From Eledone cirrhosa (Eukaryota), in contig OZ024761.1 of the NCBI GenBank assembly GCA_964016885.1, positions 10,106,001 to 10,170,000 of the forward strand: 64,000 nucleotides of DNA. Direction: 5' to 3'. The position numbers were made by a program, and so were the translations under genes. Shown here in pieces: positions 17,337 through 62,721 of this stretch (its first letter is position 1; each line of letters opens with the position of its first letter). The notes under the pieces were generated by a model. That model saw only the letters and a program-made list of their open reading frames with translations, did no database searches and was not told the origin of the DNA.

Positions 17337-17551
17337 ATAATCGTTTCTACTATAGGCACAAGGCCAGTCATTTGGGGAGAGGGGGAAGTCGATTAAATGG
17401 ACCCCAGTGCATTACTGGTACTTTATTTTATCGACCCTGTAAGGATGAAAGGCAAAGTTAACCTCGGCAGGATTTGAACTCAGACCGTAAAGGGACGTAA
17501 GTCTATGCTGAAAAGCATGGCGTCCGAGCCTCTACTGATACTGCCAATCCA
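17337..17551 (-). mobile_element. SINE family S (long variant with GGGGAAGTCGATT insert)
   Basis: Reverse complement of the 6503-6692 element plus an extra ~30-nt block. Confidence 0.88.
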
Positions 17552-19689
17552 TGTGTGACGCGCGTTTCGCAATTTATCAGCTCAAGGTTCGATCTCTATC
17601 GATCGGACCCGACTCTGGAATCAAAAACTCAGACGCAATGACGGAATGATTCCCGTATAGAGTTTAAAATATATATATATGTATATATATATATATATAT
17701 TGTAATGAGTTACTGCCTGACGGTTGAGCTCTTGCCGTTTCGTCTGGCAGTAACTCATTACAATACCTACACATACATTCCTTTACTGGTTTAAGTCTTC
17801 AATTCTTATAGAAATATCAGGTTTGGGCGCAAGAGTTCCATTGCCTTCTTCGGTAGTCTCCTTCTGTTCCTGGGTAGTCTCCTCTTGTCTCTGAGTAGTA
17901 CCGTCAAGTCAATAGCGGCCATTTTTTAGTGGGATCTATGGTCTGGCACCTGTTAATTTGCCGTCCTTCCGTCTGTTGAGATATACATAAACCCCTCTCT
18001 CTCTCTCTCTATGCCCATATAAAGATAAAGAATTGAACGGCCCAAAACAAACTCCAAGCCGTTCGACTATGATGCGATTCATCTAATCACCAGCATCATC
18101 ATCACCTTTATTGCCATCACCATTCAACTTATGTTTCTTCTCTCTCTCTTTCTCTATCATCCACAATCAAGTAAGTACATACACTTACAAACACAGGAAG
18201 ACAGGCATATTAAAACAACACACACACACACGCACGCACACACACACACACACACACACAAAACCAGTGCACACACACTCAGGAAGAGATAGATTCATCA
18301 GACACGTGAACGTCTGCTTCAATGAAATTCAATAAGAAATTGTCGGCCATTTTGGTTTCTTCATCATCAAGCAAGCTCCAGAGTTTGTCGTTTCTTCCTG
18401 ACTGCTGCTGTTACTGCTACTACTGTTGTTATTGTTGTTGCTGTTGCTTCTCTTGTTGTTGTAGTTGTTGTTGTTGTAGCCACTGCTGCTGCTGCCTGAC
18501 ATGCCTTACTGCTGCTATAAAAAGAAACTTACTGAGTTAGGTCGCTGACAGATGATATAAAAATAAGCGAATAATAAGCACACACACACACACACACACA
18601 CACTCACACTCACACTCACACACACACTCACTCACACACTCTCTCTCTCACACATACATAATAGTTTCAGAGATATATTTGCCACACACAAACAGACACA
18701 CACACATACACATGTATGTACGTACGTGTAGTGTTATATTTCTCACTCATATACAATATGCATGAGTGTATGCGTGTGTTACATATCATACATATAATTA
18801 CATTTTTACACGTATACATATATAATACATATTACACATATATAATACATATTATTACATTTATTTTTATGCCTTTTTAATATTATTATTTTACTGCTAA
18901 ATATAATAACATCATCATTTCGTAAATGTCTGATGTCGCTAACATATATATTTCTATCGCCTCCTCATTTTATCTCTTCCTCTCTCTCCGCCTCCTCCTC
19001 CTCTCTCACTCCCCAATTCTTCCCCTCTGTTTCCCTCTCTCTCTCTCTCTCTCACTCTCTCTCCTTTCCTTTTTCCTTTTTCAATAATACCTTCTTTTTT
19101 CACACAGCGCAGCATCTTCCTACTCTTTTAAAAAGGTTTAAAAGATAAAAGAGAGGGGAAAAAATAAAACAAACTAAAAAGTATCAGCAAATAAATAAAT
19201 AAATAGATAAAAATAAACACCTTTTTTTATTTCTCTCAGTTCTGCTTGTTTGCTGTACAGAGGCCATCATGTTTTTACACATCTATCTATCTATCTATCT
19301 ATCTATCTATAACTATCTGTCAATATATTTATCTATCAGTCTGTCTATCTACCCATCAATCGTTCGATCGATCTGTTTATCTGTCTATTTATCTATCTGT
19401 TTATTATCACTTGATCAAAGAAATTTTATATATATATATATATTCCGCCTGTTCACCACTTTATCATGCCATAGACAGACATAAGTATAGAAAGAGGTAC
19501 ACCTACATATTTATGAATGTGTGGGTGTAATGTAATACCACCCCCATGTACAAAATTGCATTGCCCAAGGGTGGCTGATGAGGAAGAGAGGTGCTTTTAT
19601 TCGTTCATCGCACGTATTTCGTTTTTTCGTACAACTTTGCTACACGCACACACATACATATGTATGTGTGTGTGTGTGTGTATATATAT

Positions 19690-62366: not shown

Positions 62367-62434
62367 CTCTGTCTGACGACCGATCCAGACGTATATTAAT
62401 ATTGTCTGGGATCCAGAAACCTTTGGTAATGGAG
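62367..62434 (+). ncRNA. Type-I hammerhead (family H8)
   Basis: CUCUGU-CUGACGA-CC-GAUCC-AGAC..GUCU-G-GGAUC-CA-GAAA-CC-UUU-GG-U-A-AUGGAG, GUA site. Confidence 0.75.
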
Positions 62435-62721
62435 TAGTTATAGTTTGTGTTGTTCATTTTCGAATTATATATATATATATATATATATATATATATATAT
62501 ATATATATATATATATATATATATATATATATTATACCATATACAACTGTATATATAACCCAGAAAAAAAGAGAGAAAGAAATATTTTTTCTTCCTAATA
62601 ATCGTCTTTTTCGCCGTTTTCATATACACATATATATATATATATGTGTGTGTGCGTGCGTGTGTGTGTGTGTGTGTGTGTGTATGTATGTATATATATA
62701 TATATATATATATATATATAT

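Follow-up and report, generated by a model that had tools for sequence, protein, structure and literature searches.

Short islands in the TA tracts of an Eledone cirrhosa locus are probably truncated Penelope-like elements, and one family carries a likely footprint of hammerhead self-cleavage

The short islands that lie between TA microsatellites in a 64,000-nucleotide stretch of Eledone cirrhosa DNA (the window) are most probably truncated 3' ends of Penelope-like elements (PLEs) of about 13 families, together with one ORF-less derivative; for this account as a whole, including its mechanism, we estimate a probability of roughly 0.88. In one family, J, about 1 in 70 copies (~1.4%) starts at the predicted cut site of its hammerhead ribozyme (HHR), and judged by their sequence these copies likely record self-cleavage of the ribozyme in vivo. 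The elements themselves are the expected debris of known PLE clades, and the footprint is the part worth following.

Family anchors gave 22 matches in the window, one of them false (35080), and about 13 families were counted, where a first-pass annotation made from the sequence had claimed about ten dissimilar ones. All of the motifs that it had placed were present as described. A wider descriptor, covering both core types, a long stem II and a 2-nt loop III, recognized ten intact type-I HHRs, which are those called intact in the following list; HHRs called flawed have a core with the defect stated. Signs give the strand.

17213..17316, plus strand: family M, tail region without an HHR core; missing from the first-pass annotation
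17540..17668, minus strand: family L, PLE-type 3' end with a long stem II and an 8-nt palindromic stem III; 3 nt of the first core box lost
17700..17765, minus strand: family K (sister of J), 3' HHR half plus a short inverted duplicate
23064..23624, plus strand: family G, 5'-truncated PLE with endonuclease (EN) end, 3'UTR and intact HHR (core 23437+); its tail-less 3' terminus abuts (TA)n
24085..25270, no single strand: family B, head-to-head insertion of 472-bp tandem units, intact HHRs 24448- and 24989+
25453..25596, minus strand: family J, truncated pLTR end with tail
25720..26150, no single strand: family A, inverted pair of pLTR ends, intact HHRs 25817- and 25960+; one arm tailed
27636..27850, minus strand: family C copy, flawed HHR 27752- (G12 changed)
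34834..35090, minus strand: family C copy, flawed HHR 34949- (core intact, stem III mismatch)
35100..35418, plus strand: older G-related end with a decayed HHR (35149); a TA tract splits the element
36938..37205, no single strand: family D, inverted pair around a TA tract, flawed HHR 37169- (weak stems I and II)
37300..37476, plus strand: family M, 3' HHR half plus tail, diverged
37700..37927, minus strand: family E, intact HHR 37800-
37986..38288, minus strand: family A copy with tail, intact HHR 38177-
43100..43305, no single strand: family F, inverted pair, flawed HHRs 43217- and 43236+ (short stem II)
43306..43424, plus strand: family A copy, intact HHR 43327+, fused directly to the F terminus
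43763..43960, no single strand: family I, rearranged inverted pair, diverged
62290..62465, no single strand: family H, inverted pair, intact HHR 62373+
63340..63480, minus strand: family U, intact U3·A8 HHR 63464- (absent from the first-pass annotation), 10-nt palindromic stem III, adjoining a TA run

Several motifs had been described earlier as decayed remnants, which holds for those at 17553 and 35148, whereas those at 25547, 17716 and 37343 are 3' halves of 5'-truncated copies. Older relatives of K with a full HHR were found at three loci (L401, L404 and L405), and a genome search with a K query that was mostly unique flank gave only two matches. Family D resembles C by eye.

Intact copies of family J are tandem units of 3,531 bp, and the J fragment in the window matches one locus with such units (L477) at 138 of 138 positions. 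A search with the J protein returned 63 scored full-length matches with 94-100% identity, of which 30 were fetched. The RW[KR] and DKT motifs were present in all 30 loci, and the CxCX5C linker, the CxxC before E and the CxH after N in 27, the other three stopping in-frame earlier. A pattern search revealed no CX2-5CxxC in the J protein, and no CCHH was seen by eye in its EN. J proteins resemble by eye the Hydra-clade sequences in the supplement of PMC8557442, and their homologs in the protein collection are mostly annotated with PF26215; a Pfam search of the Hydra-type ORFs returned no family, and a PDB sequence search returned no match to a reverse transcriptase (RT). Hydra-clade PLEs are reported to possess canonical HHRs and to target (TA)n, with 14 families in Hydra and one in Octopus bimaculoides (PMC8557442). 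By its motifs, J is a Hydra-type PLE with the full published set: like the members of that clade, it combines a C-terminal EN, RW(K/R), DKT, CxCX5C and CxxC/CxH with a canonical HHR and (TA)n. It differs from them in its length (3.5 kb, where published elements are mostly below 3 kb), its U3·A8 core and its stem II domain of about 55 nt. Its stem III also differs from that of the O. bimaculoides family, Hydra-1_Obim, in the supplement of PMC8557442, indicating that J is a different family.

The U3·A8 core was found in 52 of the 53 HHRs of full-length J loci, and the minimum-energy structure of a natural J HHR has the shape of a hammerhead, suggesting that it could cut as a monomer. We rejected the notion that J is a 140-nt half-hammerhead element, as longer unselected copies have a complete U3·A8 core; pattern searches for a C3-G8 core upstream of J returned junk contexts only. 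PLE pLTR hammerheads are described as heterogeneous, with a short palindromic helix III and a U3-A8 variant (PMC4209133). As in the Cercyon HHRs of Schistosoma mansoni in the same report, U3-A8 replaces C3-G8 in J and many heterogeneous families share a genome; unlike in Cercyon, the variant core of J belongs to elements that are intact and recently active, and their stem III has 6 bp. A second family with this core was observed at the locus L120 (G000:C1:145869500-145877500), where a full-length PLE has a 938-aa open frame with RT, GIY-YIG and a CX4CxxC linker and lies between two U3·A8 HHRs spaced by about 5.0 kb.

The truncated copies, or arms, share a recurrent anatomy. A, E, F, G, H, J and M terminate at either of two fixed 3' positions, which are separated by about 60-140 nt and both abut (TA)n. 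J arms end at +40 in 47 of 124 cases and at +120 in 53 of 124, and F arms at +46 in 17 of 42 and at +114 in 11 of 42. Both J termini are internal to the full-length unit and upstream of the ATG. Inverted and tandem pLTRs with a tail on one end, as known for canonical PLEs, are present. At their other side, 13 of the 54 J arms from 40 unselected loci include the upstream core and 41 do not; nearly all of the latter break off within the stem II domain, 8-25 nt upstream of GAAA, in a set whose selecting pattern itself demands 8 nt upstream of GAAA. The centre gap was at most 48 nt in 37 of 39 inverted J insertions, the turn lying inside the stem II domain. In addition, the tails of A, E, F, H, I, J and M appear by eye to share a short hairpin motif 5-9 nt past the tail-less terminus (for example at 25453-25532 and 26060-26150 in the window), which is a candidate for the RT-recognition element of Hydra-type PLEs.

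To locate 5' ends in J, we used 7,334 tailed arms with an exact match to the 29-mer starting at the predicted scissile bond (+23). In this set, 115 arms show two non-native bases directly upstream of the predicted cleavage site. The same two-base test gave 27 arms five bases upstream and 9 arms four bases downstream (+27), and a one-base test gave 42 at one base upstream (+22); positions +24 to +26, in a G run, were not counted, and the footprint is that of a single family. Arms were inspected by eye in list order (30 of the 115, with two near-duplicates skipped, 20 of the 42 and 10 of the 27). True ends made up 26 of the 30 at the site, as compared with 3 of 20 at +22 (Fisher p = 7e-7) and 1 of 10 five bases upstream (p = 2e-5). 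Scaled accordingly, there are about 100 true ends at the site, against 6 at +22, 3 five bases upstream and at most 9 at +27, where the 9 were uninspected. None of the 26 has HHR sequence upstream on either strand, while the other 4 of the 30 run past the HHR; the non-ends in the controls were point mutants or joins whose other arm crosses the HHR. Of the 26, 9 are inverted joins that are exact apart from a single added A or T, 8 are shorter inverted joins, 6 join microsatellite sequence directly and 3 are of other kinds. In ten other families, no end at the cleavage site was found among 17-78 arms each, numbers too small for a class of 1.4%. Two J copies in the loci L521 and L503 were also observed, of which one has an HHR that is complete apart from a 6-nt insertion exactly at the predicted cleavage site and the other joins what by eye is mid-ORF sequence straight to that site.

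The excess at +23 might instead have arisen from stalling of the RT at the ribozyme helices, either at the base of stem III or inside the 3' strand of stem I, which is rich in G, or from palindromes that collapsed later. RT or template switching does react to the fold, given that 41 of 54 unselected arms stop before the upstream core, and the site borders a run of four Gs, so that ends at +24 to +26 preceding a chance G would be counted at +23. However, stalling at the base of stem III would be expected to include C17 and end at +22, where the estimate is only about 6 true ends versus about 100, and stalling at the outer end of stem I (+27) accounts for at most 9. The junctions also speak against this alternative: nine of 30 are exactly symmetric apart from a single added A or T, and six of 30 join (TA)n directly and contain no palindrome. 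We regard stalling or collapse as a possible but rather unlikely source of the excess. Our preference, held with some reserve, is that truncated PLE copies preserve a record of germ-line HHR cleavage by an active U3·A8 Hydra-clade PLE, the 5'-OH product of which would have been reverse-transcribed and inserted. The accessible full-text literature searched, subscription journals not covered, yielded no report of genomic copies truncated at the cleavage site of a PLE HHR.

The mechanism that we propose for the islands as truncated PLE ends is as follows. PLE endonucleases would nick (TA)n, including the TA runs left by earlier insertions, which is the likely reason why the islands pile up in this locus. 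The protein may bind its own RNA and start reverse transcription at two internal sites, producing tailed and tail-less arms, as suggested by the two internal RT start sites seen in vitro for Poseidon of Anolis carolinensis (Frangieh et al. 2024, PMC11167929). The template would mostly be uncleaved RNA, and the RT would stall or switch template at the ribozyme fold, probably the main such point in J, leaving palindromic debris of 60-200 nt. In about 1.4% of J arms, the junction counts suggest that hammerhead cleavage of the template preceded its reverse transcription; the copy would then begin at the scissile bond, and a single added A or T often separates it from the inverted arm. The normal role of the HHR would be to cut tandem read-through transcripts, to unit length in J and to monomers and circles in B.

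The elements resemble Poseidon as characterized in PMC11167929 in their tailed and tail-less ends, AT-rich targets and, presumably, uncleaved RNA as the main template. They differ in tails of about 60-140 nt rather than 30-40, and in that a minority of J copies appear to derive from cleaved RNA, which went undetected in the RNA-seq data of that study: its accessible text states that no reads ended at the HHR site of the lizard PLE. If the reading of the footprint is true, the 5'-end profile of any high-copy PLE family reads out cleavage in vivo, and in this genome the readout would span at least 20 families with about 150,000 hammerheads in all. A sharp class of copies starting at the scissile bond would then serve as a purely computational assay for any PLE-rich genome. 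With J, an intact and recently active protein of Hydra type is also available for in-vitro work together with its natural RNA, the one full-length PLE protein assayed in PMC11167929, according to its accessible text, being that of Poseidon.

[quoted passage not shown] The islands of these five families are truncated ends of coding PLEs. The 3'UTR before the related ORF is about 1.5 kb long in A, 200 nt in F and 1.2 kb in J; in nine F copies from seven locus ids, the parent ORF ends about 190-210 nt upstream of GAAA. The A, F and J ORFs are mutually 34-40% identical, and the linker and EN motifs of the Hydra clade are present in the A and F fragments, with another residue in place of the final linker Cys in the F copies read. 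The G walk reached RT, a CX4CxxC linker and GIY-YIG, and an EN with CX4CxxC was reached for C in two loci sharing about 650 nt. This linker upstream of GIY-YIG, together with minimal or short-stem-III HHRs, likens C and G, of which EN or partial RT-EN fragments were seen, to Neptune/Nematis-type PLEs; this placement, like the other clade assignments here, was drawn from motifs. In another locus, L130, we observed a PLE ORF that has no CX2-5CxxC linker (Penelope/Poseidon-like) and a minimal HHR of its own; with this ORF type beside the others, at least three PLE types coexist in the genome.

Families D, E, H, I, K, L, M and U yielded no ORF link, and their putative PLE origin is read from architecture. 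For E, the walk followed the 3'UTR up to about 780 nt upstream and reached no ORF. A Hydra-type ORF upstream of D in one locus (L463) was rejected as its parent, since two TA tracts intervene. The claim that the window has no PLE ORF is nearly right, except that 23067-23213 encodes the last 49 codons of the GIY-YIG EN of family G, 100% identical to another locus (L151). No long host ORF was found in the window. An 871-aa ORF at 19694-22309 (minus strand), the only long one recognizable there, was considered as a PLE parent and rejected, as it is an APE-RT LINE (PF00078, PF14529); a TA tract was seen to interrupt its 5' end.

Family B is of another kind. It is an ORF-less tandem with a period of 472 bp, in 2.9 and 3.1 copies here, its units are 98-99% identical, and one HHR occurs every 472-478 nt; its arrays are often head-to-head. 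B was also found in contigs of two other organisms. It shares with non-LTR retrozymes (Cervera and de la Peña 2020, PMC7229834; bioRxiv 10.64898/2026.07.22.740005) an ORF-less tandem organization with one type-I HHR per unit, a low GC content and copies 98-99% identical. It is unlike the published retrozymes in its unit of 472 bp (typically about 300), its head-to-head insertion in (TA)n and its PLE-like fixed ends, and it is known from DNA. On these sequence features, B is a non-autonomous, non-LTR retrozyme-like derivative. The idea that the islands are non-coding derivatives thus applies to B, whereas A, C, F, G and J have coding parents.

The first-pass annotation had associated the motifs with Naiad-type PLEs, and a broader version of this idea is that they are Naiad elements or free-standing non-autonomous retrozymes without a coding parent. 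Naiads target (TA)n, are listed for octopus and have left remnants in cephalopods (Craig et al. 2021, PMC8557442); B is an ORF-less tandem, and eight families have no ORF link. However, Naiads are defined by an N-terminal EN, DKA and the absence of canonical HHRs, which the same paper states they lack, whereas the EN is C-terminal in all five linked ORFs and the HHRs of these families are canonical. Moreover, the homology of A, C, E and G breaks off upstream at varying lengths, the pattern expected of random 5' truncation. The Naiad association is therefore not supported, and we consider Naiads or parentless retrozymes an improbable origin of the islands.

The window motifs are real hammerhead-ribozyme sequences, with core boxes, stems I-III and NUH, and they exceed chance. 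The comparison with shuffled sequence proposed in the first-pass annotation came out in its favour: the wider descriptor gave the 10 intact HHRs against a mean of 0.07 and a maximum of 2 in 30 shuffles, and a strict type-I descriptor gave 6 against means of 0-0.2 across six shuffling schemes (di-, tri- and tetranucleotide). Ten mutated decoy cores produced no match in the window under any of the three settings in which stem I is obligatory. A chance origin of the matches in low-complexity, AT-rich DNA is thus a practically negligible explanation, even though stems I and III of family A are pure A/T and a few single-copy descriptor matches look spurious, since decoys also stay near 0 and each family has hundreds to thousands of candidates in the genome. 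Rfam at gathering thresholds found nothing in the window, and the 150 best Rfam E-value matches were rejected as microsatellite artefacts.

Conservation among copies agrees with this. In B, a G·U of stem I is swapped to U·G and N7 varies, with no listed change at the invariant core positions, and together with the constancy of the J core these patterns supply the stem conservation and covariation that had been sought. Families related to A keep stem I and the palindromic stem III and differ in stem II. A palindromic stem III had been claimed for most families; it is imperfect in G (23433) and H (62367), and among 20 multi-locus HHR clusters in 1.92 Mb of fetched loci, a sample biased toward the queried families, it is perfect in 10. 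According to the literature, short HHRs with a palindromic stem III are expected to need dimers or the help of a protein. In ViennaRNA predictions, the short window HHRs mostly lack the catalytic fold, as monomers and dimers alike, and the predicted dimer of family U keeps stems I and II with stem III intermolecular.

Beyond the window, the wider descriptor found 21 HHRs in 390 kb of unselected DNA (0, 3, 0, 1 and 0 in shuffles), which extrapolates to about 52 per Mb and roughly 150,000 per 3 Gb assembly. This is of the order of the 126,247 reported for axolotl (PMC7229834), but spread over many families. The accessible text of the repeat annotation of Octopus vulgaris names 31 recently active PLE families and leaves hammerheads unmentioned. 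First-look genome searches gave from at least 202 to at least 1,901 candidates per family, 52,348 exact matches to one J 24-mer, 10,596 candidate sites for PF01541 and 93,462 candidates for the J protein. The hidden community of the first-pass annotation is thus not special to this locus, as the same families occur genome-wide and TA targeting by many HHR-bearing families of one genome has a precedent.

Its description of a very dense set stands in one respect: the window is about three times richer in HHRs than unselected DNA (Poisson p = 0.003). It also contains 123 (TA)8+ tracts, or 1.9/kb against 1.0/kb in 39 unselected 10-kb stretches, and the number of arms per tract shows no significant excess (21/123 in the window versus 43/405 in the sample, p = 0.12, after one false anchor was removed from 22 and 7 reversed-anchor control matches were subtracted from 50). 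The HHR excess is therefore mostly due to the larger number of TA tracts. Arm density correlates with TA tracts (rho = 0.46, p = 0.003), and (TA)5 lies within 230 nt downstream of 37 of 50 unselected arms as compared with 16% of random positions, which upholds the claim that the motifs sit in (TA)n. Other sequences were also seen in this setting. A 410-bp repeat (16635-17046, 26420-26830 and 62720-63070) is flanked by TA tracts and frequent elsewhere, and a short palindromic repeat lies in TA tracts at 30683-30840, 35640-35690 and 46200-46260; no HHR was seen in either, and the latter is a candidate MITE or PLE fragment. At 34569, a lone first core box precedes a short GC hairpin and a second box that is broken; this may be one more decayed HHR.
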